Source: Acidobacteriaceae bacterium
GTDB taxonomy: Bacteria; Acidobacteriota; Terriglobia; Bryobacterales; Bryobacteraceae
Assembly (NCBI GenBank): GCA_019240475.1
Contig: JAFAYI010000008.1
Coordinates: 12,980 to 76,979 of the forward strand
Length of the DNA: 64,000 nucleotides
Direction of reading: 5' to 3'
Part shown: positions 2,426 through 42,201 of the stretch, piece by piece
Position numbering within the stretch: position 1 is the first letter of the stretch
How the letters are laid out: each line of letters opens with the position of its first letter
Position numbers and translations under genes: made by a program
The notes under the pieces: model-generated
Database searches by the model: none
Seen by the model: only the letters and a program-made list of their open reading frames with translations
What the model was told of the DNA's origin: nothing

Positions 2426-4786
2426 ATTCCCCCCTACGTCACTCCCGGTATCTATCAGGCAGCCATACCGCCTGCGCCAGACATTCGTTTGGTGAGGACC
2501 GACATTGCCGGATTCTTCGGCTTTGCCGAGCGCGGGCCGCTGCCCGACCGGGATGAGACGGATCCCGGCAAGCGGACTCAGGCAGCTGTAAAAATAACTT
2601 CCTGGAACGACTTTCGGTTGAAGTTTGGAGGATTTCTTCCTTATAGCTATCTCGCTTATGCCGTGCGGGGATTCTTCGCCACAGGAGGCAAGGAGTGCTA
2701 TGTCGTCCGCGTCGGGGCGGCGGCAAAGAAGCCGGCTACGGCCGTGCTGCCGTTGCCCGCGGCGATCACGTCTAGAACTTTGGCGAATCTTGCGGTGAAC
2801 TCCAGCGCCGGTGATACCCAGATCGCTTTCGATGCGGATGTAGACTTGGCGCCCGGTGCTTGTATCGTGGTCGGCGACCCTTCGCTTAACCCGCAACTGT
2901 CAGTCGCGAGCGTGATCGACCAACGCACTATCACTGTGCAACCCGCGCTTGGAACCACGTATTCTGCCGGCGACCCGGTATTCGCTCTTTCAGGGCCGGC
3001 AGTCGCCGCGCCGGTGACTTCAGTGGCGGCCGCAACCACCGTGGGCCAGACTCGAATTCAGCTCGATTGTTCGCAGGTTCTTGGAATACAGGCAGGATGC
3101 CTGGTTGCGCTCGGCGATCCGATCAATGGTGAATGCGTGTCCGTCGCCAGCGTGGTCGACGATCAGTTCATTACAGTCCAGCCGGCGCTTCAGTCGCTCC
3201 ATCCTGTCGGCGAACCTGTGTATCCGGTCTCCGGGTCCGCGCTTACATCCTCCGTTGCCGCGGGAGCGTCCAATTTGCAGGTCAGCAATGGCGCGTTTCA
3301 ACCGGACGACCTAGTTAGTGTTGAGGGCAACGGCATTCGCGAAATTCGTGTCGTTACAAGCACTCCATCGACCTCCAGCATACAGCTCGGGAGGGCGCTG
3401 CAATTCGGCTACGACGTTGGCGCGCTTGTACGCAAATACGAGACCGCGTTGACTGCAACAGCATTGAGTCCAGGAGAGTGGGGAAACCACATCAAGCTCC
3501 AGATCGTAGCCCTCGATCCTGGCGACGCGGTGACGCACTTCTCGCTGAGGGTCACAGTCGATCAAGGCGCAGATCCCACGCAGCCTATGCAACAGGAGTT
3601 CTATCCGCTCCTGTCGCTCGATCCAAACGACCCGTCTCCGAGCGACATTTACGCGCCCTGCGTTGTTCAGAACATGTCGGCTCTGATCCAACTCGAGTTG
3701 GCCGGCGCCCCCTTCGACTGCAAAGCGTCACCCCGAGTCACGCCGCCTCAAACCTTCCTCCTCTCGGGCGTGGGACCGCTTGCGACCTACGATCTTTATC
3801 TCGAAGGCGGTTCGGATGGCGGTCTACCGGCGCAATCTTACGCGGAGCCTCCAGATGCCGAGACCCAGGATTTTCAGGACGCGCTGGACGTGCTCGGACT
3901 GGTCGATGAAATCGCAATCCTGTGCTGTCCCGACGCCGCCGGTCCTCTGCCGCCGATAAACACGAACCATCGCTGGTCAATGAGCGCGATCCAACAAGCC
4001 ATGGTTGACCAGTGCGTAAACCTGCAATATCGCGTGGCCGTGTTGGATACGCCGATGTCGCTCACGCCCAACGCGACGATGCCACTACAACCGGCTCAGG
4101 CTGTGAGTTGGTTGAAGCAGCAGGCCCACCCGCAGCCGGCAACGCGTTTTGCCGCAGTCTACTATCCCTGGCTCAGCGTGCCGGACGAACTGGGTGTCGA
4201 GGGCCCGAATCGGCGCGTTCCGCCATGCGGGCACGTGGCGGGCGCATACGCTTTCACTGACAACAACTTTGGGGTTCAGAAGCCTCCGGCTAACGTCGAA
4301 CTGCATTTCGTGTCGGATGTGGAGCTCGCCGTAACCGACCAGCAGCAAGGATTTCTGAATCAGCAAGGCATCAACGCCATCCGGCCTATCCCCGGGCGCG
4401 GCATTCGTATCTGGGGAGCACGTTCCATTTCGACGGACTCCGATTGGATCTACATTCATACCCGCAGGCTTATGTCGATGATTGAGGACTCGGTCGAGAA
4501 GGCCAGCCGCTGGGTCGTGTTCCAGAACAACGACGACGACCTGCGCCGGATGCTGACTCATTCGCTCAACGTTTTTCTCGAATCCATTCGGCTCACGGGC
4601 GGGCTGAAAGGACTTCGTGCGGCCGACAGCTACTTCGTCAAATGCGATAGCACGAACAATCCGCCGGCCACCATCGATGCCGGGCAATTGGTCTGCCAGG
4701 TAGGGGTCGCCATTGCAGCTCCCATGGAATTCCTGGTTTTTGACATTCGGCGGTCGGTGGCAGGAGCGCAGGTTGTGGAGGCGTAA
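2426..4786 (+). CDS. tail sheath protein, paralogue 2 (long form with central insertion); probable non-canonical ATT start
   Basis: The track ORF starts at TTG 2489, but the frame is open from 2408. The upstream codons encode PPYVTPGIYQ, which aligns position-for-position with MPEYLYPGVYVE of sheath 1. ATT 2426 lies 8 nt after GGAG (2414-2417). The C-terminal GINAIRPIPGRGIRIWGARS..WIYIHTRRLMSMIEDSV matches the sheath C-domain. Confidence 0.8.
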   Translation: MPPYVTPGIYQAAIPPAPDIRLVRTDIAGFFGFAERGPLPDRDETDPGKRTQAAVKITSWNDFRLKFGGFLPYSYLAYAVRGFFATGGKECYVVRVGAAAKKPATAVLPLPAAITSRTLANLAVNSSAGDTQIAFDADVDLAPGACIVVGDPSLNPQLSVASVIDQRTITVQPALGTTYSAGDPVFALSGPAVAAPVTSVAAATTVGQTRIQLDCSQVLGIQAGCLVALGDPINGECVSVASVVDDQFITVQPALQSLHPVGEPVYPVSGSALTSSVAAGASNLQVSNGAFQPDDLVSVEGNGIREIRVVTSTPSTSSIQLGRALQFGYDVGALVRKYETALTATALSPGEWGNHIKLQIVALDPGDAVTHFSLRVTVDQGADPTQPMQQEFYPLLSLDPNDPSPSDIYAPCVVQNMSALIQLELAGAPFDCKASPRVTPPQTFLLSGVGPLATYDLYLEGGSDGGLPAQSYAEPPDAETQDFQDALDVLGLVDEIAILCCPDAAGPLPPINTNHRWSMSAIQQAMVDQCVNLQYRVAVLDTPMSLTPNATMPLQPAQAVSWLKQQAHPQPATRFAAVYYPWLSVPDELGVEGPNRRVPPCGHVAGAYAFTDNNFGVQKPPANVELHFVSDVELAVTDQQQGFLNQQGINAIRPIPGRGIRIWGARSISTDSDWIYIHTRRLMSMIEDSVEKASRWVVFQNNDDDLRRMLTHSLNVFLESIRLTGGLKGLRAADSYFVKCDSTNNPPATIDAGQLVCQVGVAIAAPMEFLVFDIRRSVAGAQVVEA

Positions 4787-32292: not shown

Positions 32293-34815
32293 CTATTGCA
32301 GCGCACTTGCCGATACCGGCGTTGTCGCGATGCTGGTCAGCTTCCGCTGGCATCCGTCCCAAAGCGCAATCCGCGCCTCAATTCCGCTCTGCGCGGCGCT
32401 CGCCGCCTTGTCCCACAGCTCTTCCCGTTCGCCTGCCAGCCGCTCCAACATTCGCCTCGCCGCGGGACCATGGTTATCCCCATCCAGTTCTATGTGCCTC
32501 TCCAGATAAAACTTGAACGTCGGAACATCCACTTCCGGACTAGCCCAGTGTGAGAGGATCCGTTCGAACATCTCCGGGATGATATCTTCCCGGCCGTACA
32601 GGAAATCCGCTGCCACTTCCACGAGGTGGCCGTTCATCGCAACATCCAATGTGCGCAAGACGAATTTGGAAACATGTGATGGAACCCTTTGGGCTACCAG
32701 CGCATCCGCGGGCGTGCTCCCCGCCTTCAAGGCCGTCAAGAAATTGAGAAATGGGCCGGTATCTGCTCCCACCTCCCGCATTGCAGCCAAATAAATTTCC
32801 AAATGGCTGGCCGGCACGCCATCCGGACCTTCGTCGCTCTCCTCGCTATGGATGATCTCGTTGATGAAACGCGCCAGACTGGCGTCATCGGACGGCATCC
32901 AAGGAAGCCCGGTGCAAGTCAGATCGCGCTGCAGCCGCTTCGCGATCGACATGAAATCCCAAACTGCGTATACATGCTCTTCCATGAACGCGCGCAGCCG
33001 CTCTATACAGTCGACGGTCAGATAGATCGGATGCTGGAGCAATTTGTCCCGCATGGCGAACAATCCGGGGTGCTTCTTCAGAATCGTTGTGGGCAGCTTG
33101 CTCAGGTGCGGCGTGTTGCGTGGATCTGCCGCAGCTGTCAGATTGCGCGGATTGTGGAAGCACAGCGGATCGTCCGCCATGTAGCTGCCCTTGGCCTGCG
33201 CCATACCGCGGCATCCGGGACACCGGTCGCTCTCATAGTAGTAGCAGCTCGCGCACCAGCTATCGGGCGGCCGTTCATATTCGCGTAGATCCTTGACCAC
33301 CGGGCTTTCCGCCAGAATCTTCCGCAGACTGCTTTGCCGAGTGTTCCCGAGCGGAACAAATGTCCCGCTGCACGGACGTACATCCCCTTCGTAGTTCACG
33401 TACAACGAGAAGTAGTTGGCGAGGCATGAATAACCAACGCGCAGCGGCAGCAGGGGCCATGTGTAACCGTATTCGCCGCGGTCCAGCAGCCACAACTCCT
33501 CCCAAAGGTGCTTCAGTTCGAGCGGTGAGAGCAGTTCGCCCGGATCGCCATCGTAGTGGCAGCCTACGAATCTCTCGAAGTACGGAATCATTCCGCGTTC
33601 CCGCGCATATCGCCACATGGTCGGCATGTCGGAAAGGTTCTTCCGAACCACAATACTTTCAAGCGAGATCGGAAGCTTTCCATCCCCGTAGCCGGCTTCC
33701 ATAAGATGGTCGATGCCTTCGAGAACCTTGCGCCACCCTCCCCTTACGCCGACCATCTGGTCGTGTATCCAGGAGCGCGTGCTGTAAAGTTTCACGTACG
33801 GGGCCACCTTGAGCGCTGCCATGTGCTCGGCCTTTTTCCGATCGATCAACGTGCCATTCGTGAAGACCTCAACCTGCATACCGCGCTGCACTGCCCGCTC
33901 GGCCAGATGGAAGAATAACGGCGAAGAGAGCGGTTCGCCGCCGCCGATCAAATCGGCGTTCTTCGCTCCGAGATCGGCCGCCTGATCGATCACGTCGTAA
34001 AGCTCCGCCAAATCCAGTGGCGACTTGGTCGCATTGATATTGACGAAACCTGGCTCGAATTTCTCCAGCTCGAAAACGTTCTTCACATCGCCGAATCCCG
34101 CAAAGCAACCCGTGCAGGCCAGATTGCAGCGATTCGTAAATTCCATGTTGAAGTACAACAGCCGTTCGCGCCGTCGCGCCGACCAATACTCTTCATCGCT
34201 GAATCCCTCCGAATCGAACACCGGCGCCGGTCTCAGCGTTCCTCGCGCAATCTCCAACTCATCGCTTTCCGCGATGCGCTTCAGCACGTCATTCATCTCC
34301 GGTTGCGAGATGGTGTACGAGCGGTCGGTAGGAACCAGCAGCCCGCGGTCGTTCTGATATCTGACGTTCGGACGGGGCTCGACATGAATCTGAGGGCCAT
34401 CCTCTCCGCCGTCCCAGCTAATGCCGCTCGGTAGTGCTTCCGTCAGGCGAACCGGTCCGTCGAACACCACTCGGATGTCGCTTTCGACCGTGTTCTGGCA
34501 TGAGAGCCGCTTCCCTTTGAGGCGCTCGGCATTGGCCGCCTCCACCGCGTTTGGCTGGCTTATACGGCCCTCTATTAGTTCGAACCGGCAGGTCAGGCAT
34601 TTGCCCTCTCCGCCGCAGGTATGCGGAATCGAAATCCCGGAGCCTCGCGTAGCGTCCAAGATCGACTGGGCCGCCTTCACCACAAATGTGCCCTGTCCAC
34701 AGTCCACAGTGAAGGCGCCACCGGGCTGGCTGGAACGTAAGTTCCGCGCTGCTGTTGTATCCTCCACCGGGAAAGTGGCGCCGTTCTGCAACGGACTTCC
34801 GCTCGCTGTGCTCAT
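32293..34815 (-). CDS. three-domain fusion: 2Fe-2S ferredoxin / radical SAM with SPASM extension / DUF3050 (haem-oxygenase-like fold)
   Basis: The ATG has an AAGGAG RBS. The ferredoxin motif is HTCGGEGKCLTCRF..RLSCQ. The rSAM motif is FTNRCNLACTGCFAG (CxxxCxxC). The SPASM region is Cys-rich (RPCSG.., WCASCYYYESDRCPGCRG..DPLCF). The C-terminal HPIYLTV..FMEEHVYAVWDFMSIAKRLQ..PWMP..INEIIHSEESDEG..SHLEIYLAAM resembles DUF3050. Confidence 0.85.
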   Translation of the reverse strand: MSTASGSPLQNGATFPVEDTTAARNLRSSQPGGAFTVDCGQGTFVVKAAQSILDATRGSGISIPHTCGGEGKCLTCRFELIEGRISQPNAVEAANAERLKGKRLSCQNTVESDIRVVFDGPVRLTEALPSGISWDGGEDGPQIHVEPRPNVRYQNDRGLLVPTDRSYTISQPEMNDVLKRIAESDELEIARGTLRPAPVFDSEGFSDEEYWSARRRERLLYFNMEFTNRCNLACTGCFAGFGDVKNVFELEKFEPGFVNINATKSPLDLAELYDVIDQAADLGAKNADLIGGGEPLSSPLFFHLAERAVQRGMQVEVFTNGTLIDRKKAEHMAALKVAPYVKLYSTRSWIHDQMVGVRGGWRKVLEGIDHLMEAGYGDGKLPISLESIVVRKNLSDMPTMWRYARERGMIPYFERFVGCHYDGDPGELLSPLELKHLWEELWLLDRGEYGYTWPLLPLRVGYSCLANYFSLYVNYEGDVRPCSGTFVPLGNTRQSSLRKILAESPVVKDLREYERPPDSWCASCYYYESDRCPGCRGMAQAKGSYMADDPLCFHNPRNLTAAADPRNTPHLSKLPTTILKKHPGLFAMRDKLLQHPIYLTVDCIERLRAFMEEHVYAVWDFMSIAKRLQRDLTCTGLPWMPSDDASLARFINEIIHSEESDEGPDGVPASHLEIYLAAMREVGADTGPFLNFLTALKAGSTPADALVAQRVPSHVSKFVLRTLDVAMNGHLVEVAADFLYGREDIIPEMFERILSHWASPEVDVPTFKFYLERHIELDGDNHGPAARRMLERLAGEREELWDKAASAAQSGIEARIALWDGCQRKLTSIATTPVSASALQ

Positions 34816-34842
34816 TCCTTGCTCCTTAACAACTGTGCTCCG

Positions 34843-35766
34843 CTAATGAACGTACTCGGCGGTACACTCTTCTTGGGGCGCCAGTTCGCGCGCGGTTTGA
34901 GCGAGGAGCCGAACACGATCCTCCCAATCCGCGCCCATATCCATAGGCCGGAATTCGACCCGCAGGGATCCCGGCCGGCCGCGTAGACGCGTCCAGAACC
35001 ATACGCTCGATTCAAGTTCTAAGAACGGTGGATCTGATTCGGGACACGGAATTCGTTCGAATGTGTCAATCGCCCGCCGATACTCCGTGAAGGACTCGAT
35101 CGCGTATGGCACAAATCCCACGCGCCGCAGCGTACCGGATCGATTCCATTCCCCATCCGCCTCCTCGAAAAGCCGCATGGTGGTGCAGGAACTGTCGAGC
35201 AGCCGGCCATTGAACTCGATCGGCATCTGGTAAGGCCGGACGGGCTCGTGGCCACGACGATTGTATTCGTTGAAGAGTCTTAGGGCCGCCGCGTCGGCGG
35301 CGGGCTGCACATGAATATGAATCTCGTTCAGACATGCCAGAACAGTCTCGCCCGGGAACACAAACTTCTCGCCGTCCTCGAAGAGCACCGTCGCGCGGCT
35401 GTTGGCAAAATAGCTTGATGTGGCTCGGCTGCGTGCGTTTGGAGCCAAGAGCGAGGGATCACGAAGCTGGTCCGGCCGCACCCGCGGCACAACCGGCGCG
35501 GCGCAAACCTGGTATCCAAGCTGCACCGCACACTCATGCAGGTGTGCAGCATCCTGGCGCAGTTCCGTCAACGCGAGGTTAATCCCTCGCTTTGTGAGCG
35601 GCCAGGGTCCTGGATTCAGTTCAATCTGAAAGCTCCCTAACTCCGCCGCTGGCATGTTAGGATATGCACGCAATTGCCACAGGCGGATCACTTCTGCGGT
35701 CGAATGCATTGCGGGATATCCGGCGCCGTCGAGAAGAAAGAACTCGAGTTCAACACCGAAAGTCAT
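34843..35766 (-). CDS. GCS2-family carboxylate-amine ligase (YbdK/EgtA-like)
   Basis: Start at ATG 35766, which overlaps the upstream methyltransferase stop (ATGA). The track's 450-aa extension is rejected. Motifs seen are FGVELEFFLLD, FQIELNPGP, NEIHIHVQ and WTRLRGRPGSLRVEFRPMD, spaced as in glutamate-cysteine-ligase family 2. Confidence 0.65.
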   Translation of the reverse strand: MTFGVELEFFLLDGAGYPAMHSTAEVIRLWQLRAYPNMPAAELGSFQIELNPGPWPLTKRGINLALTELRQDAAHLHECAVQLGYQVCAAPVVPRVRPDQLRDPSLLAPNARSRATSSYFANSRATVLFEDGEKFVFPGETVLACLNEIHIHVQPAADAAALRLFNEYNRRGHEPVRPYQMPIEFNGRLLDSSCTTMRLFEEADGEWNRSGTLRRVGFVPYAIESFTEYRRAIDTFERIPCPESDPPFLELESSVWFWTRLRGRPGSLRVEFRPMDMGADWEDRVRLLAQTARELAPQEECTAEYVH

Positions 35767-36398
35767 GCCACGCACCTGGCGGATTCCGGTTCGGGCGACC
35801 AAAACGAAAACGCCGTCTCTCCCGAAGCGTCGCCGTAGACTTGTGTCATTCGGTAAGCCCTGGTCAGCGTCGTAACCGCGCGAATTTGTTTGAATAAACA
35901 CTTGAGTAAAAGTGAGTGCCCGCTTCCGGCAAGAGATTGGAAACAACTCCCGATTACGGCGAGTCCGCCTTTCGGTGAACTGACGCACTTCCGCTCCCAG
36001 GCGGCGAGCTGCCTCGCCGAGGATGGCTCCATGAATGGTGGATTGCAGATAACCAGCGCAGGCTCGCAGGGCGTGAGCGCCTCTCCCGCCCGCCACCGTT
36101 TCGCCCAGCCGGGCACGCCATGCGCCGCCCGATTCGCTTCGGCTGAGGCTACCGCCTGTGGGCTGGAATCCAGAAAATACACGGATTCGAAACACGGTCG
36201 ATTAGCCAGATAGATTGCAATACCCAGCGCTCCCGAGCCGCAGCACATGTCGATGAGACGCGTTGGCCGACGAAAGACGCCCCGCGCGAGCACGTTCCGG
36301 GCAGCCTCGAGCAGGCCCAGCGAAGATTCCCGAGGTAAGAATGTCTGATTGGTCGCGACCAGATCCAGGCCGGCCCATCGGATATTCACAAATCGCAT
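35763..36398 (-). CDS. class I SAM-dependent methyltransferase with NPPF motif (HemK/N-methyltransferase-like)
   Basis: The SAM-binding motif is LIDMCCGSGALGIAIY with acidic YFLDSS, and the catalytic-type motif is VICNPPF. ATG 36398 is preferred over the track's GTG 36452, because a -35/-10 pair would lie inside the longer version. Confidence 0.7.
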   Translation of the reverse strand: MRFVNIRWAGLDLVATNQTFLPRESSLGLLEAARNVLARGVFRRPTRLIDMCCGSGALGIAIYLANRPCFESVYFLDSSPQAVASAEANRAAHGVPGWAKRWRAGEALTPCEPALVICNPPFMEPSSARQLAAWERKCVSSPKGGLAVIGSCFQSLAGSGHSLLLKCLFKQIRAVTTLTRAYRMTQVYGDASGETAFSFWSPEPESARCVA

Positions 36399-36436
36399 TA
36401 TTTCGATACAGCTCTCGCCGCGCGAACCGTGTGCCG

Positions 36437-36466
36437 AGTATAGCCACGCCACACAGAATAAGTCAA
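36437..36466 (-). promoter_or_regulatory. candidate sigma-70-type promoter for the minus-strand methyltransferase-ligase-rSAM operon
   Basis: On the minus strand, TTGACT (36466-36461) is followed by an 18-nt spacer and TATACT (36442-36437). This lies about 40 nt upstream of ATG 36398. Pattern match only. Confidence 0.25.
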
Positions 36467-36570
36467 GACAAATTCATCAGAAATCCTGATCTTACTCTCG
36501 CAATCGCTAATCTCAAAATTTTCATATCTGTAATTGAAAACTTCTAGATTGTCTTTTTTTGATACAGAAT

Positions 36571-36586
36571 TCACGAAAACTCGTGA
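36571..36586. promoter_or_regulatory. 16-bp perfect palindrome TCACGAaaacTCGTGA in the divergent control region (operator candidate)
   Basis: It is the only perfect inverted repeat I noticed in the AT-rich roughly 200-bp gap between the two divergent biosynthetic operons. Confidence 0.3.
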
Positions 36587-36658
36587 CAACAGATAACTCC
36601 TATGATAATTTCGCAGTGTCGTGCGCGACGCGACTAACTTACAGAGTTGGAGGTGTGT

Positions 36659-36958
36659 GTGGCTAAAGCACTGGAAGGAACGCCTGGAGCGAGCATCGAG
36701 TTGCTTGAAGAAGGCGCGGACATGCATGTTGAACGATCCGTCATCAAAGCGGGCGGTACGATTCCGGAACATTCTCACAAGGTCGCGTCCAGCTACGTTG
36801 TGGTCAAGGGCAGCGGAGAGCTGACTGGAAAATCCGGACGGCGTGTGTCCACCGGTGATACGGTTCTGATTCCCGCCGGGCAGCAGCACGGTTGGAAAGG
36901 CGGTGAGGGCGATGGCCTCACCATCGTTGGCGTGTTCAACGGGCCGCAAGAGCAATAA
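36659..36958 (+). CDS. cupin-domain protein
   Basis: GTG 36659 lies 5 nt after GGAGG (36649-36653); the track start is TTG 36647. AGGTIPEHSH..VVVKGSGELT..GDTVLIPAGQQHGW is a classic two-motif cupin metal site. Confidence 0.65.
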   Translation: MAKALEGTPGASIELLEEGADMHVERSVIKAGGTIPEHSHKVASSYVVVKGSGELTGKSGRRVSTGDTVLIPAGQQHGWKGGEGDGLTIVGVFNGPQEQ

Positions 36959-37025
36959 CAGACATTCTCCCGGAAACGCTGGCGTTTCCAGATGCGGGCG
37001 TTTCCGCTTTTCCGCAGGAGCCTAC

Positions 37026-38231
37026 TTGCTAACCCGCGATACGAACCTACGCCTGGCCCCGGGTCTGCAAGTTACCTCCTTAGGTCAGGAAGTCGTGCTG
37101 GAGGGCAGACGCGACGCCATTCCGTGCCCTCGCGACGTTCTATTCGCGCTTCAGAGACTACCCTGCACCCTGGGCGCACTTGTCGATAACTTGCCTTCGC
37201 CGTCGGCCTACGAATGGATGGCCGCCTCGGCCGGTCTAATGGTGCTGATTGGAGCCGGTGTTGTCCTCAGCGGCGAGGATTCCTGCCGGGCGCAGTTTCT
37301 GGATCATGGTTTCGGGTTTGTGGAACCGCATATCGCCATGATCCAGGACGTGAGGCGAACACAGCTCTTTATGGAAGCGATCCGGCGAACTGTGGCGCCC
37401 GGGGATGTCGTGGCCGATCTTGGTACGGGCAGCGGCGTCCTTGCAATTGCCGCGGCTTTGGCAGGCGCGCGTCGCGTCTATGCCTTGGAACGCAGCGGCA
37501 TCGCCGAGGTCGCCGCGCGCATGTTTGAAAAAAACGGCATCGCGGAGCGCGTCACGCTTATCCGGGATAGCTCGAGTTCTCTCTCGCTTCCCGAGCGGGC
37601 GCAAGTGCTGGTCGCCGAACTGATCGGCACAGATCCATTGTGTGAACGCATTCTTGAGTACACCGCCGATGCGGTCGAGCGTTTGCTGGTCCCCCATCCT
37701 CGCCTGATTCCGAGCGCCTTGCGGATTTTCGTGCGAGCGGTCGAACTCCCGGACACAGTCACCCAACGGCATATTGTCGAAAAGCCTCTTGCGGCACGCT
37801 GGGCCGATTTGTATGGATTCGATTTTTCCGCACTGGAGGAAGCGACCGCGGGAATTTCGGCTTACTTTACGGTCGCAACCCCAGTGGCGGCGCAATGGGC
37901 TACTTTAACGGATGCAACGAAACTCGTTGACATCGATCTCGCACGCTGTCCCGCTCTGCCGTTGCAAGTCTCCACCGCTGCGGTCGTGACGACGCCCGGG
38001 GTTATGAACGGCCTCACGGTATTTTGGGAGATCGACCTGGCTCCCGATATCCGCTTCTCGAACGATCCGCAATTATGTGATGCGAATTGCTGCTGGGGCA
38101 CGGCTGTGTGGCTCCTGGCGGAACGCCCACGGGTGCGCGAAGGGCAAACGATCCGCCTGAACTTTCGCTATGCCGCATCGCGATCTTCGGCGAACGCGAC
38201 ACTCGAGCGCTCCGAGGCATGCCGGGCATGA
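37026..38231 (+). CDS. protein-arginine-methyltransferase (PRMT)-like class I methyltransferase
   Basis: TTG 37026 lies 5 nt after GGAG; the track start GTG 36903 overlaps the cupin gene. Motif I is VVADLGTGSGVLAIAAALAGARRVYALE. VLVAELIGTDPLCERIL looks like the PRMT double-E loop. LIPSALRIFV follows, as in the PRMT beta-barrel junction. Confidence 0.65.
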   Translation: MLTRDTNLRLAPGLQVTSLGQEVVLEGRRDAIPCPRDVLFALQRLPCTLGALVDNLPSPSAYEWMAASAGLMVLIGAGVVLSGEDSCRAQFLDHGFGFVEPHIAMIQDVRRTQLFMEAIRRTVAPGDVVADLGTGSGVLAIAAALAGARRVYALERSGIAEVAARMFEKNGIAERVTLIRDSSSSLSLPERAQVLVAELIGTDPLCERILEYTADAVERLLVPHPRLIPSALRIFVRAVELPDTVTQRHIVEKPLAARWADLYGFDFSALEEATAGISAYFTVATPVAAQWATLTDATKLVDIDLARCPALPLQVSTAAVVTTPGVMNGLTVFWEIDLAPDIRFSNDPQLCDANCCWGTAVWLLAERPRVREGQTIRLNFRYAASRSSANATLERSEACRA

Positions 38232-39316
38232 AAATCCGGGTCGACCCCGCTATCCACATTCACTCCGACCTCGGCGCTCCCGGAACTTCGGGACGCCAAC
38301 TGATTCTCGAAAGCCTGCGGTCGGGTCTGCGGTTCGAGTTGTTGGGCACACCTGCATTGCAGGCTTTGAACCGTGCCGCGCATTGGATGGAGGCGGACGA
38401 CTTTCTTGAGGCGCTGACATCTAGCGGCCTGGAACGTGCCAAGGCCGTTGCTTTTCTCGATGACGCACTCGGGAATAGCCTGCTTCAGCGCTTTGCCCCA
38501 GGAGCCCACGACGAGGACGCGCGCGCAATTGCATTGAATCGCGCCAGTGCTTCTCTGGCGCAGCAGTTCCTGCTCGCCAGGTCCCATCAGCAGTATCTCG
38601 ACTATAGCCTCCCCGAGACATGCGGCATTGAAGAAGACCTAATGTCGGCTTACCGCTCACAGGAGACGCCTCCACCGATATTCAAAGACTGCGACCGGCC
38701 ACTCAAAACTGTGACCCTTCCCGCAGTTCGAGAAGCGTTGCCGGCAGTTCTGTGCGATGAGCCTGACGCTTCAGAAAATGCACCGCGCGATGTGAGATGG
38801 CTGGCGGAATTCCTGCGGGCCGCCGTCGGGGCAACAGCGACGCTGGAAGATCCTGTGCAGGGCACGCTCCTTTTGAAGACCTATCCATCCGGCGGAGCAC
38901 GCCATCCCGTGGAGTGCTATCTGGCGGTACGCTCCGTTGAACAACTGGCTCCCGGTTTTTATCACTACTCGGTCCGCCGGCATGAATTAGATCGAATATC
39001 AGATATCCAGGATTCTCTAAGTACCTGCCTGTTTCCCGGCTTCAATTCAGAGTTGGTTATTGTACTTACGGCTCTTCCCGAACGAGCAATGTGGAGATAC
39101 CGGGAAACCACCTCGATCAGCGTCGTGTTGCTCGATGTGGGCCACGCGGTCGGAAATTTTTCACTGCTCTGTGAATGCGAGGGGACGCCGTATCGCATCC
39201 ATACAGGCGCGAATCTTAATCGCGCCGCAAATTACATGTCTCTCGAACAGTTTCGCGAAGTAGTGGTTGCAGCGATCGCACTTGATCTATCAGCGCGCGC
39301 AAAGAATGGGGAATGA
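38228..39316 (+). CDS. SagB-type dehydrogenase / nitroreductase-superfamily protein 1
   Basis: The ATG overlaps the upstream stop (ATGA). LLLKTYPSGGARHPVECYLAVRSVEQLAPGFYHYSVRRHEL matches the SagB-type signature (PSaGa..P.E.Y...gl..G.Y.Y). Confidence 0.7.
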   Translation: MKIRVDPAIHIHSDLGAPGTSGRQLILESLRSGLRFELLGTPALQALNRAAHWMEADDFLEALTSSGLERAKAVAFLDDALGNSLLQRFAPGAHDEDARAIALNRASASLAQQFLLARSHQQYLDYSLPETCGIEEDLMSAYRSQETPPPIFKDCDRPLKTVTLPAVREALPAVLCDEPDASENAPRDVRWLAEFLRAAVGATATLEDPVQGTLLLKTYPSGGARHPVECYLAVRSVEQLAPGFYHYSVRRHELDRISDIQDSLSTCLFPGFNSELVIVLTALPERAMWRYRETTSISVVLLDVGHAVGNFSLLCECEGTPYRIHTGANLNRAANYMSLEQFREVVVAAIALDLSARAKNGE

Positions 39317-40344
39317 TGCGTCGATATCGCGTGAATCCTTTACTGGCGGCCGGGTGGCGCGCAACTGAATTGCAGACGCCTCTGAGATTCACGCTAGAAG
39401 ATGCGCTTTCTAACTGTGCTCGACCGCTCGACGCGGAAGACTTCTGGGTTCTGAACTTTGCCAAGAGTATTGGCGAAGCTGCGCAAACCAGATCCCAATT
39501 ACTGGCCGAAGCAGTTCGATTCGCCCTCTTGCCTGAGCAGGAAGTCGAGCGGACCCTCGCGCCGCTATGGGATGTCCTATTTGTAGCGGAGGACTCCGGA
39601 AGCCAAGTAGACCGTGCGGTCGGTGTATGGGAGCATTTCGACTGCAAGCTGGCGCTCGAGTTCTATGCGCAATCGCTCGACGAAGGGCATCAAAAGCATA
39701 GTCCGGACCGCTCGGTTTCTTCGAGCGGCTTCCCGGAGGCGGACATACCACTGCCCGCGCCCGTGAGTTTTCCCCACACATCGCTGGCAAACGTTCTGTA
39801 CAGACGGCGCACGTGCCGCAATTTTAATGGCCGCTCCGTCCCGCTTGATCTTCTGTCGTCGGTGCTGCATCGAGGGATCGCGCGCGCCTCTGCGCACTTC
39901 CCGCCATTCGCGGTCCAGTATCACCTGATTGTATTGCGCGCCGGGGGCCTCGCCTCCGGTTCTTATATCTACGATGCCGCCCGCCATGCGGTAGCAGCTC
40001 TCCGTCAGAGAGAGTCGACCGACTTGGAGCAGGATCTGGTCCAGATGCTCATCGGACAGAAGTACGTCAAAGGATGTGCCGCAGCGCTGCTGCTGTGGCT
40101 CGATACAGCTTCTCTGGTCATCGGCGATCCGGGGCCTGCAGCTTTTCGGAAGTGGCTGATCGCAACTGGCGCCTTGGCGCAGAGACTCATTGTGTTAGGC
40201 TGCGCATTGGGTTTGGAAACATTTCTCTCGGCCGCGATTCATGATGCGTACGCGCGTCATATTACGTGCAACCGCCTGAAAGACCGCTATGTTCCCATGC
40301 ATTGCGTGGCCTTCGGCTATGCCGATGCTACTAATTCCTGCTAA
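39313..40344 (+). CDS. SagB-type dehydrogenase / nitroreductase-superfamily protein 2
   Basis: The ATG overlaps the upstream stop. LANVLYRRRTCRNFNGRSVPLDLLSSVL is a nitroreductase N-motif, and GGLASGSYIYDAARHAV is a SagB-like segment. Confidence 0.6.
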   Translation: MMRRYRVNPLLAAGWRATELQTPLRFTLEDALSNCARPLDAEDFWVLNFAKSIGEAAQTRSQLLAEAVRFALLPEQEVERTLAPLWDVLFVAEDSGSQVDRAVGVWEHFDCKLALEFYAQSLDEGHQKHSPDRSVSSSGFPEADIPLPAPVSFPHTSLANVLYRRRTCRNFNGRSVPLDLLSSVLHRGIARASAHFPPFAVQYHLIVLRAGGLASGSYIYDAARHAVAALRQRESTDLEQDLVQMLIGQKYVKGCAAALLLWLDTASLVIGDPGPAAFRKWLIATGALAQRLIVLGCALGLETFLSAAIHDAYARHITCNRLKDRYVPMHCVAFGYADATNSC

Positions 40345-40397
40345 CAAACGCCCCATGTTTTACTCAATTAGTTATAACTGCCATTAGGAGATTTTCG

Positions 40398-40610
40398 ATG
40401 AATCCATATGAAATTAAATTACTGGCCAGGCATGCCGATGCTCTGGCACGTCATCCCGGTCTGGCACGCCACGCTGGTCTCGCCCGTCACCCCGGCTTAG
40501 CCCGCCATCCAGGCTTAGCTCGTCATTCGGGCCTTGCTCGCCATCCCGGTCCGGCCCGCCATCCCGGTGTCGTGGCCAGCACAGAGCAGTCAGGCAGCGG
40601 CACTGACTGA
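40398..40610 (+). CDS. 70-aa repeat peptide, candidate multi-core RiPP precursor (nine A-R-H-x-G units)
   Basis: AGGAG lies 7 nt upstream of the ATG. The sequence is MNPYEIKL-LARHADA-LARHPG-LARHAG-LARHPG-LARHPG-LARHSG-LARHPG-PARHPG-VVASTEQSGSGTD. The units differ mostly at synonymous third positions, so the peptide rather than the DNA is conserved. Confidence 0.7.
   Translation: MNPYEIKLLARHADALARHPGLARHAGLARHPGLARHPGLARHSGLARHPGPARHPGVVASTEQSGSGTD
40422..40568 (+). repeat. in-frame tandem repeat of an 18-nt (hexapeptide) unit, about 8 copies; the first unit is 21 nt
   Basis: Read directly: ctg gca cgt cat ccc ggt / ctg gca cgc cac gct ggt / ctc gcc cgt cac ccc ggc / tta gcc cgc cat cca ggc / tta gct cgt cat tcg ggc / ctt gct cgc cat ccc ggt / ccg gcc cgc cat ccc ggt. 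Confidence 0.9.
40587..40609 (+). other. stem-loop at the 3' end of the precursor ORF (7-bp stem CAGTCAG/CTGACTG, 9-nt loop)
   Basis: A perfect 7-bp inverted repeat spans the last codons and the stop codon. No U-tract follows, so it is not a canonical intrinsic terminator. It may be an RNA stability or processing element. Confidence 0.3.
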
Positions 40611-40666
40611 GCCACACGTCCGAACAGGAAACGGCGACACTCTTACTCCGAGTTCCTTCGTAAGCG

Positions 40667-41773
40667 ATGGCCTCCCCGCATGTCCGTCCCGCAGCCGAAT
40701 CGATCGAAATCGACGGTTCTCGTTTTCACCTGATCTGGCTGCGGGATAATTGCCGCTGCAACTTCTGCCAGGACTCCGGGACCATGCAGAAGCTGTTCGA
40801 CATTACGGCAACTGACCTACAACCGCGCGTCCGGAACCTCTGCATAGACCAGGATTCGGTGTGCATCACGTGGGACGAAGCGCCTCTGCATGAATCCGTG
40901 TATGGCCGCAAATGGCTCCAGGCGCATGCCTACGACAAGCTTTCGGAGATGCCCGAGGAACAGCCGCCTGTCGAACTTTGGCACGCCTCGCGCTGGACCG
41001 CGAGCCCCCCTCCGGCCTATTTGCCGGATTCATCCACTTGGCACAATTACCTTAATCGGCTAGGATTCGCGCTGCTAAGGGATCTGCCGCCCGAGTCCTT
41101 CCTGAATTTCCTTCGTAGCATCGGCCCCATCCAGCCAACCGAGTTTGGTGATGTGGCGCCGCTTCGCGCTTCCCTCAACGCCAACGATCTCGGCGAAACC
41201 GGATGCCATCTCGATCCGCACACGGACTACTCCGTGTACATGCATTTCCCGCCCGTGCTCAGCTTTCTGCATTGCATTCGCAACGATTCCGACGGGGGCG
41301 TCTCCATTCTTGTGGATGGATTTGCCGCCGCCGAACATTTTCGCCGCGAAGATCCGGCCGGTTTCGATCTCCTTGCCTGTACTCGCCTTCCGTTTCATCA
41401 GTTATATGGACGCTGGCGCTATCACCACAAGCGGCTCAGACCCATGATCGAGTTGGACGAGGACGGAAGTATCCTCGGTGTCCACGTCGGACACCCGCAC
41501 ACCAGAAACTGGCGCTTTCCGTTTGACACGATGGCCCCGCTGTATATGGCCTACTCTCGCTTTATCAGGATCCTCAACGATGCGTCCCGGCAATTTTATT
41601 ACCGCCTGCAACCGAATGAATGTCTGGTCTTCCTCAACCAGCGTGTGCTGCATGGACGGACTGCGTTCTCCCCGGATGCTGGCGAGCGTCATCTCCAGGT
41701 CGCGTACGTGAACTGGTCTTACTTCGCCGCGCGGCGACGATTTGAAGACCAGAGGAGCAGCGAACTCGTTTGA
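40667..41773 (+). CDS. Fe(II)/2-oxoglutarate dioxygenase of the gamma-butyrobetaine/trimethyllysine hydroxylase type (TauD superfamily with DUF971-like N-domain)
   Basis: The N-terminal IEIDGSRFHLIWLRDNCRCNFC carries the CxCxxC zinc motif of the GBBH N-domain. The facial triad candidates are HLDPHTDYS (HxD) and the distal RVLHGRTAF. Confidence 0.8.
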   Translation: MASPHVRPAAESIEIDGSRFHLIWLRDNCRCNFCQDSGTMQKLFDITATDLQPRVRNLCIDQDSVCITWDEAPLHESVYGRKWLQAHAYDKLSEMPEEQPPVELWHASRWTASPPPAYLPDSSTWHNYLNRLGFALLRDLPPESFLNFLRSIGPIQPTEFGDVAPLRASLNANDLGETGCHLDPHTDYSVYMHFPPVLSFLHCIRNDSDGGVSILVDGFAAAEHFRREDPAGFDLLACTRLPFHQLYGRWRYHHKRLRPMIELDEDGSILGVHVGHPHTRNWRFPFDTMAPLYMAYSRFIRILNDASRQFYYRLQPNECLVFLNQRVLHGRTAFSPDAGERHLQVAYVNWSYFAARRRFEDQRSSELV

Positions 41774-42201
41774 TGTCGGGCAGCATCATCTCATGCGAGA
41801 GCCCTCGAGAACGACTGCAAGTTTCGCCCGCCGTCATCACGAAACTGATCGGACGCGATCTCGTGCTTCTCGACCTTCAGTCCGGTCGGTATTATATGCT
41901 CGCTCCCACCGCCAGAGTGTTTTGGACCGAGATTCTTCGGGAGGATTCTCGATCGCCGATTCTCGATCGATTATCGGCCTTGTTCCGTGCAGGTCCCGGG
42001 CAACTCGAAGCCGATCTGGGTGAGTTCTCGGCGGCCATTCGGGCGGCCGGCCTGATCACGCACGGGCTAGATCGCGAATGTCGTTCCGGGATTCCCGCGG
42101 ATCTCTCGGTATCCGATCTGCCGCCATACTCCAAGCCGGAGTTGTTTCTGGCTGGCCATGTACGTGATTTCACCTCTGAGCCACTACGAAAAGACGAATG
42201 A
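41773..42201 (+). CDS. PqqD-family protein (RiPP recognition element candidate)
   Basis: The ATG overlaps the upstream stop (TGATG). LIGRDLVLLDLQSGRYYMLAPTARVFWTEIL..LDRLSALF..QLEADLGEFSAAIRAAGLI matches the PqqD/RRE pattern. Confidence 0.7.
   Translation: MSGSIISCESPRERLQVSPAVITKLIGRDLVLLDLQSGRYYMLAPTARVFWTEILREDSRSPILDRLSALFRAGPGQLEADLGEFSAAIRAAGLITHGLDRECRSGIPADLSVSDLPPYSKPELFLAGHVRDFTSEPLRKDE

Follow-up and report, generated by a model that had tools for sequence, protein, structure and literature searches.

The closest characterised relative of the enzyme described here is TsaG, a pfam06325 methyltransferase that is conserved in thioamitide clusters, where its gene lies between the flavoprotein and YcaO genes. 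Genetic evidence shows that TsaG is needed for the bis-N-methylation of histidine, and the PhyH oxygenase TsaJ carries out beta-hydroxylation only once this methylation is in place (PMC8153245). We analysed a related gene for a protein arginine methyltransferase (PRMT)-like, S-adenosylmethionine (SAM)-dependent methyltransferase of 401 amino acids. It occupies 37026..38231 on the plus strand of a 64,000-nucleotide stretch of DNA from an Acidobacteriaceae bacterium (assembly GCA_019240475.1, contig JAFAYI010000008.1, positions 12,980 to 76,979), referred to as the window.

PRMT-type chemistry is regarded as essentially a matter of eukaryotic protein regulation, and we know of no ribosomally made, post-translationally modified peptide (RiPP) with a guanidino-N-methylated arginine. 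A literature search on RiPP and lasso arginine methyltransferases and on methylarginine returned nothing relevant beyond the thioamitide paper and mentions of SznE. SznE (StzE) N-methylates the guanidine of arginine in streptozotocin biosynthesis, where SznF, which combines a haem-oxygenase-like domain with a cupin, acts as the N-oxygenase (PMC11705231). In the tiarins, TfxB and TfxC carry RiPP recognition elements (RREs), and an imidazole chromophore is formed at a conserved Gln that follows a specificity residue, Arg in the case of trifolitoxin; tiarin operons are also reported with accessory methyltransferases and oxygenases (bioRxiv 10.64898/2025.12.02.691738).

Results

A PRMT catalytic core fused to a recognition element

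By sequence, profile and fold the methyltransferase is a PRMT-type enzyme, and this assignment is solid. When the protein was compared with all PDB chains using phmmer, all 60 listed matches were PRMTs or closely related arginine methyltransferases. PRMT7 was the best (E = 1.9e-19), CARM1 reached 1.1e-17, and PRMT6, PRMT1, PRMT3, PRMT2, PRMT8 and PRMT9 were matched as well. Pfam PRMT_C (PF22528) scored 38.6 bits against a cut-off of 27 (E = 1.4e-9). An AlphaFold2 model was built on 23 homologues (predicted local distance difference test, pLDDT, 87.9; predicted template-modelling score 0.79), and its top 50 Foldseek matches in the PDB were all PRMTs, with a best E-value of 3.5e-24, template-modelling (TM) scores to the target of 0.70-0.82 and alignments that span 310-360 columns to PRMT6, PRMT7, PRMT3 and PRMT1.

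The residues expected of a PRMT active site lie in order along the plus strand. The helix before motif I (HIAMIQDVRRTQLF, 37329..37370) carries the PRMT signature H..ML.D..RT..Y/F in the family alignment, and its M105, D108 and R111 are invariant in the homologues. The SAM-binding motif I with its post-I acidic residue (VVADLGTGSGVLAIAAALAGARRVYALE, residues 128-155, 37407..37490), placed by the alignment and by the PrmA and Methyltransf_25 matches, reads VVADLGTGSG...YALE; G133, G135, G137 and E155 are invariant among the 23 homologues. The double-E loop (VLVAELIGTDPLCERILE, residues 194-211, 37605..37658) was aligned with that of CARM1: in the HMMER alignment vlvaEligtdplcErile of the window protein pairs with iiisEpmgymlf(y/n)Ermle of CARM1, and both Glu residues, E198 and E207, are matched. 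E198 is invariant in the 23 homologues, and E207 and the Trp W357 are each kept in at least 90% of them. The PRMT beta-barrel and oligomerisation subdomain follows at the C-terminus (37797..38186), as delimited by PRMT_C and the Foldseek span. An earlier reading of this DNA from its letters and open reading frames (ORFs), here called the sequence-only reading, had already noticed motif I and the double-E loop. Both are present, the resemblance to PRMTs goes far beyond chance, both Glu residues align with the PRMT double-E, and the best structural matches are PRMTs and not other class I methyltransferases.

The first 85 residues (37026..37280, plus strand) form a PqqD-type RRE with a winged-helix fold. 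In the AlphaFold2 model they form a separate domain of four strands followed by three helices, with a pLDDT of ~90. A profile of 17 such N-terminal domains aligned with the PqqD profile in hhalign over 95 columns with a probability of 92.7% (E = 4.3e-7). Whole-domain Foldseek matches of residues 1-85 were RREs, namely those of ThcOx, McbB, LynD, PbtF, TbiB1, TigE, PqqD and MccB; the TM scores were 0.68 for PbtF and 0.63 for leader-bound TbiB1, with weak E-values (0.008-0.6), as expected for a domain of 90 residues. The detection is one of profile-profile and fold comparison only, as Pfam scans of the 17 domains taken singly gave no PqqD match even at E-values up to 10. That an RRE is fused to the catalytic core argues strongly for a ribosomal precursor peptide as the substrate.

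Compared with the eukaryotic PRMTs (PRMT7, CARM1/PRMT4, PRMT6, PRMT1 and PRMT3), to which it is ~21-24% identical, the window protein shares the fold, motif I, the H..ML.D..RT helix, the double-E, the Trp of the Thr-His-Trp (THW) loop and PRMT_C. It differs by having an RRE in place of their SH3, zinc-finger or PH-like substrate modules, by Cys-Cys for the Thr-His of the THW loop, and by its place in a bacterial RiPP operon.

A family that includes the thioamitide histidine methyltransferases

Relatives were surveyed in 80 genome loci (L001 onward) and in the metagenome contigs L081-L084. A tree of 96 sequences was computed with the quick method of IQ-TREE from 84 RRE-PRMT proteins and 12 outgroup PRMT-like proteins. 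All 84 RRE-PRMT proteins formed one clade apart from the canonical PRMT-like proteins (Shimodaira-Hasegawa-like approximate likelihood ratio test, SH-aLRT, 99). Within it, a thioamitide clade of ten rows (SH-aLRT 99) was sister to the other 74, and the window protein fell among these 74, outside the thioamitide clade, in a clade of five ARH-type enzymes (SH-aLRT 100).

The ten members of the thioamitide clade come from actinomycete loci that carry, in this order, genes for APH, APH, a flavoprotein, the PRMT-like protein, YcaO, PhyH and a C1 peptidase. Eight of the ten hold a precursor that ends in ...AYHC, ...AFHC, ...ATHC or ...GVHC, as exemplified by SVMAAAATVAFHC of Streptomyces enissocaesilis. 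Since precursor ends and gene order match thioamitide clusters, these PRMT-like genes are TsaG/TvaG orthologues. Their products are 35-39% identical to the window protein, over residues 2-388 in L020 and 15-388 in L012 (the longest), and the N-terminal domains of the orthologues in L020 and L034 align with the window RRE. Like the window enzyme, TsaG and TvaG are proteins of ~400 residues with an RRE-like N-terminus and a PRMT-fold core; they act on a RiPP precursor, as is presumed for the window, and are encoded alongside an Fe/2-oxoglutarate (2OG) oxygenase. The window enzyme is thus a variant of the TsaG-type RRE-fused, PRMT-fold RiPP methyltransferases. The surroundings differ. Thioamitide clusters encode YcaO, TfuA, a LanD-like flavoprotein, APH kinases and a PhyH oxygenase, and their cores have one His and no Arg. 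Neither YcaO nor TfuA, LanD-like flavoprotein or APH kinase was found among the ten proteins scanned in 32293-42201 of the window, and the precursor there is an ARH repeat and not a peptide ending in ...HC.

A further ~18 loci place the PRMT-like gene among lasso-type genes, namely those of an asparagine-synthase-like cyclase, PqqD, an HPr-kinase-like protein, NTP_transf_5 and an ATP-binding cassette transporter. Lasso-type clusters with an RRE-PRMT gene were seen in cyanobacteria, Acidobacteriota, Gammaproteobacteria and Myxococcota and are a possible reservoir of Arg-methylated lasso-like peptides.

In an actinobacterial/Thermoleophilia subclade of 24 loci the PRMT-like gene, which encodes the Glu/Glu form of the double-E loop, lies outside any obvious RiPP cluster. 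In six loci (L040, L053, L055, L062, L071 and L078) the gene adjoins, on its upstream or downstream side, that of a small SHOCT-domain protein whose N-terminus reads M-G-F-V-R-R-R-A-R-R-R-T. This protein is an Arg-rich candidate substrate, and in the database homologue P0074 a SHOCT domain (PF09851) forms part of the same polypeptide as the methyltransferase. Small 'PRMT-cluster' ORFs in actinobacterial loci were discarded as unrelated neighbours (SnoaL-like, GNAT, SHOCT) joined by read-through ORFs. The ORF clusters c2, c5, c15 and c19 of the 80 loci were likewise artefacts, being antisense shadow ORFs in high-GC genomes.

The gene is part of a conserved cluster with an ARH-repeat precursor

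The ORF lies on the plus strand and ends at 38231, as had been read from the sequence. Its start had been left between TTG 37026 and GTG 36903. TTG 37026 is the supported start because an AGGAG lies at 37016-37020, 5 nt before it, because the database gene call P0001 is 401 residues long and 100% identical to the window methyltransferase, and because the N-termini of homologues (MLTRDT/MLNRDT/MKRDT) line up with it. GTG 36903 was rejected, as it would place 56 nt of the gene within the cupin gene and give the protein 41 extra residues, which are absent from every homologue.

The plus-strand operon opens with this cupin gene (36647..36958, Pfam Cupin_2), which is also directly upstream of the methyltransferase gene in L001, L081 and L083. 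The stop of the methyltransferase gene overlaps the start of SagB/TfxB-like dehydrogenase 1 (38228..39316; NCBIfam TIGR03605, 4e-24) in an ATGA at 38228-38231. L081 and L083 share this 4-nt overlap, and the methyltransferase is translationally coupled to this next maturation gene. SagB/TfxC-like dehydrogenase 2 (39313..40344, Pfam and NCBIfam scans) follows, and after it comes the presumed substrate, a 70-residue precursor of eight xARHxx units encoded by an 18-nt tandem repeat (40398..40610). The sequence-only reading had placed the methyltransferase gene next to the peptide gene; the two SagB-like genes (38228-40344) in fact lie between them, within the same operon. A TauD-family Fe/2OG dioxygenase of the TmpA/BBOX/TMLH type is encoded at 40667..41773 (Pfam TauD 1.5e-36 with GBBH-like_N; TmpA 2e-70; PDB matches TmpA 1.5e-47 and BBOX 4e-40), and a PqqD-like protein (Pfam PqqD 3.5e-9) at 41770..42201. 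A divergent operon on the minus strand (32293..36452) holds the genes of a HemK-like NPPF methyltransferase, a GCS2-type ligase and a ferredoxin-radical SAM/SPASM-HamA(DUF3050) fusion. Scans for promoters and terminators gave background level only, and a search of sequencing runs returned a single DNA run, from a rock metagenome, that contained 6% of the words; no RNA run was returned.

The whole cluster was found in one of the 80 genome loci, L001, from an Eremiobacterota metagenome-assembled genome. There the radical SAM-HamA fusion is 76% identical to that of the window, the PRMT-like protein 52% and TauD 60%, and the locus also holds GCS2, the HemK-like methyltransferase, the cupin, both SagB-like proteins, the PqqD-like protein and a precursor of six LARHPG units. 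The gene order in L001 is rearranged, which points to selection on the gene set and not to simple synteny. The same gene set is present in the metagenome contigs L081/L082 (57% identity) and L083/L084 (56%), with the qualification that no HemK-like (MTS) gene was called in L081/L082 and that the gene at the GCS2 position there has no recorded Pfam match. Their precursors have five [LI]ARHxG units in L081 and six in L083. All 25 repeat units of the four clusters have the same A, R and H; G is kept in 24 of them, and Gln is absent. The sequence-only reading had held Arg to be the only invariant cationic residue of the repeat, which does not stand, as His is equally invariant. That the methyltransferase acts in RiPP maturation is well supported by the RRE, by the ATGA coupling, by the ARH precursor in four independent cluster types and by the kinship with TsaG.

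A short N-terminal segment, M-x-x-Y-E-I-[KR]-P/L-L-A-G/R-R, precedes the repeats (window 40398-40440, L081 8408-8450, L083 3174-3215) and resembles the Y-x-x-P-x-L RRE-binding motif of lasso leaders. The ARH precursors have no long leader, and their C-terminal follower is variable. In L083 a called gene for 48 residues (3184-3330), rich in L, P and A, was set aside as being in the wrong frame; the precursor is the 73-residue ARH-repeat ORF at 3174-3395.

In all four clusters the PqqD-like protein ends in a conserved leader-like tail (PPYSKPELFLAGHVRDFTSEPLRKDE in the window). Over the C-terminal ~26 residues it reads Y-[SA]-K-P-x-L-x-x-x-G-H-x-R-[ED]-[FV]-T-x-[EQ]-P-[LF]-R-x-D (window 41770-42201; L001 about 3731-3811, minus strand; L081 9733-10155; L083 4586-4966). 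The frame of this tail matches the leaders of lasso-type candidate precursors beside PRMT-like genes elsewhere. Judged by these motifs, the PqqD-like protein may combine an RRE with a pseudo-leader or mini-core of its own, which might be autoinhibitory or might, with its conserved Arg, be a second substrate.

Additional genes accompany the cluster in the metagenome contigs. A PanD-like aspartate decarboxylase follows the radical SAM-HamA fusion in both L081 and L083, genes for SAM synthetase and trigger factor lie directly upstream of the precursor in L083, and a LanM-like protein (DUF4135 + LANC_like) is encoded downstream in L081 (L083 489-2919 and 4960-5403; L081 451-873 and 10289-13537).

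The double-E residues covary with the Arg and His content of associated peptides

At the double-E positions all 74 members outside the thioamitide clade, the window protein included, have Glu/Glu, and all ten TsaG orthologues have Asp/Met. The latter read TTDIVGN...LDMVIWE in this region and have RK instead of RT in the preceding helix (10/10). The second Glu is present in 8 of the 12 outgroup PRMT-like proteins. The one subclade known for imidazole methylation has thus lost the guanidinium clamp, which the window enzyme has retained.

The peptides differ in parallel. Thioamitide cores contain His in eight of eight cases and no Arg. Candidate lasso-type precursors beside Glu/Glu enzymes were collected with a noisy regular expression and kept if they had an upstream Tyr/Trp with a P-x-L...G...T frame and lay inside or beside lasso genes. 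The nine retained (L002, L004, L005, L009, L019, L028, L032, L057 and L067) share the leader P-Y-x-x-P-x-L-x-x-x-G-x5-T; all nine have Arg (~22 in ~160 residues) and none has His. Two of these loci come from cultured strains, L002 from Rivularia sp. UHCC 0363 and L004 from Plectonema cf. radiosum LEGE 06105. His is therefore not a general acceptor of Glu/Glu enzymes. As the Glu/Glu versus Asp/Met pattern and the Arg/His content of the associated peptides covary, Arg is favoured over His, and we consider it somewhat probable, from sequence comparison, that the Arg of the ARH repeat is the acceptor.

Several observations weigh against this assignment. The sole characterised member of the family methylates His, and His is as invariant in the repeat as Arg. 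The cluster encodes a second methyltransferase (HemK-like, NPPF) that could share the acceptors. Given cores of 15-20 residues, the chance of Arg in all nine candidate precursors is roughly 0.02, which is mildly improbable, and the candidates are unverified. The tree was computed by a quick method only. Finally, the equivalent of the THW loop (DANCCWGTAVWLL, 38079..38117, plus strand), located in the family alignment against a THW-bearing PRMT1-like outgroup, reads C-C-W. The Trp (W357) is kept and the Thr and His are not, so that the THW-like loop sought by the sequence-only reading was recovered in part; the loop is variable across the family and reads S-H-W in the TsaG orthologues. PRMT5, a true PRMT, also lacks the THW His (F-S-W).

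Discussion

Which nucleophile the enzyme methylates can be weighed against three other accounts, the strongest of which keeps the enzyme class and the peptide and moves the methyl group to the invariant His imidazole. The product would be N-methyl- or N1,N3-dimethylhistidinium, as made by TsaG/TvaG, and the TmpA/BBOX-type dioxygenase would then hydroxylate a permanently cationic residue, as TsaJ does. This account is favoured by the 35-39% identity with TsaG orthologues inside one RRE-PRMT clade, by the His found in all 25 repeat units, by the 2OG oxygenase present in both systems together with the order of methylation before hydroxylation in thioamitides, and by the quaternary ammonium cations on which the nearest relatives of the window dioxygenase act. 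The His-methylating clade, however, has exchanged both Glu residues (for D and M) and RT for RK, and the window protein has kept Glu/Glu and RT; the window clade is neither nested in the thioamitide clade nor sister to it, and His is absent from the cores beside other Glu/Glu members. We therefore rate His as rather unlikely, if still an acceptor to be taken seriously. Arg of the repeat remains our preferred acceptor also when nucleophiles outside the ARH units are considered. One is the Arg of the PqqD-like tail (P-[LF]-R-x-D, after the lasso-leader-like Y-S-K-P-x-L-x-x-x-G-H-x-R-x-F-T), a motif that occurs in all four clusters and matches the leaders of candidate lasso-type precursors. Another is a heterocycle or oxidised intermediate made by the TfxB/TfxC-like or radical SAM-HamA enzymes, in line with the imidazole chromophore that TfxB/C of the trifolitoxin type build (bioRxiv 10.64898/2025.12.02.691738); the last is free L-arginine, the substrate of the guanidino methyltransferase SznE (PMC11705231), given that both domain types of SznF, haem-oxygenase-like and cupin, occur in the cluster. 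The fused RRE argues against a free amino acid, the repeat lacks the Gln that is converted in tiarins, and none of these options explains the invariance of ARH better than direct modification does, which leaves them improbable as a group.

Far less probable still are a housekeeping role, such as PrmA-type methylation of ribosomal protein L11, and a catalytically dead scaffold in the cluster. PrmA gives the best Pfam E-value (8e-13), and in several databases homologues go under the names L11 methyltransferase or precorrin methylase. PrmA and the window protein do have the class I Rossmann SAM domain in common, which is the source of the PF06325 match, but the match covers this part only (residues 153-242 of the 442-residue version), and PrmA has no PRMT beta-barrel, double-E loop or RRE. 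The beta-barrel, the double-E loop and the fold are PRMT-specific. NCBIfam TIGR00406 reached 48 bits against a cut-off of 183.15, again over the Rossmann part, and PrmA identity was rejected. A dead scaffold is at odds with SAM-binding and catalytic residues that are all intact and conserved, and both versions are at odds with the fused RRE and with the strict co-occurrence of enzyme and precursor.

The two described systems that share further enzymes with the cluster also differ from it. The streptozotocin pathway resembles the cluster in its haem-oxygenase-like and cupin domain types, a comparison made by description only. SznE takes a free amino acid and has no reported RRE, whereas the window enzyme is RRE-fused, and the haem-oxygenase-like domain of the window belongs to the HamA/DUF3050 type and is joined to a radical SAM enzyme. 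With tiarins and trifolitoxin the window shares a pair of RRE-bearing SagB-type flavin mononucleotide dehydrogenases, and in trifolitoxin the modified residue is flanked by an Arg. A conserved Gln is found in tiarin precursors, whereas the window precursor is multi-copy and has His at that position and no Gln in its repeat, which makes tiarin membership of the cluster doubtful.

With Arg of the repeat as acceptor, maturation might proceed as follows. The RRE would dock the precursor, likely at its short N-terminal Y-E-I-K-P/L-L segment. The PRMT core, comprising the Rossmann SAM site, the D108/R111 helix, the E198/E207 loop and the beta-barrel, would transfer the SAM methyl to the Arg of every [L/I]-A-R-H-x-G unit, at a guanidino nitrogen held between both Glu residues as in eukaryotic PRMTs, and the enzyme would work along the eight units. 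Methylation would come first and hydroxylation of the methylated residue by the TmpA/BBOX-type dioxygenase second. What the analysis shows is the motifs and fold of the enzyme, its RRE, its family and the conservation of the cluster; we infer that the peptide is its substrate and Arg the acceptor, as well as how many methyl groups are added and in which order the steps run. The order is suggested by the kinship of the dioxygenase and by the precedent of TsaG followed by TsaJ. TmpA, gamma-butyrobetaine dioxygenase and trimethyllysine dioxygenase hydroxylate substrates that bear methylated cations, and the window dioxygenase keeps the H-x-D metal motif (HTDY). The aromatic cage of human BBOX1, which we take to be Tyr177, Trp181 and Tyr194, aligns in the window dioxygenase (HMMER) with Phe, Pro and Glu; this set may accommodate a hydrogen-bonding guanidinium more readily than a quaternary ammonium, only a hint that the cationic substrate is something other than a trimethylammonium group.

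A far-reaching extension, which we regard as a long shot, would make guanidino N-methylation of peptidyl-Arg a widespread and as yet undescribed RiPP modification carried out by Glu/Glu RRE-PRMT members, including those of lasso-type clusters in cyanobacteria, Acidobacteriota, Gemmatimonadota and Myxococcota. In the window it would come first and act as gatekeeper in a streptozotocin-like oxidation cascade on a peptide. The TmpA/BBOX-type dioxygenase, the HamA-type haem-oxygenase-like domain and the cupin would then hydroxylate or N-oxygenate the methyl-Arg of all eight units, to give multiple N-oxygenated or N-N-bonded Arg-derived warheads per precursor, possibly tiarin-like inhibitors of arginyl-tRNA synthetase.

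New in this work are the RRE at residues 1-85, the recurrent cluster, the clade shared with TsaG/TvaG, the Glu/Glu versus Asp/Met split and the Arg/His contrast of the precursors. The family analysis gives the thioamitide histidine methyltransferase, so far unique, an evolutionary context. If Arg is the acceptor, one step would be defined in an otherwise unassigned 10-gene cluster that is conserved in Eremiobacterota and related metagenome contigs, canonical PRMT chemistry would enter bacterial peptide natural products with an RRE as its targeting module, and for hundreds of uncharacterised homologues the choice of acceptor could be read from a simple sequence rule, Glu/Glu versus Asp/Met.

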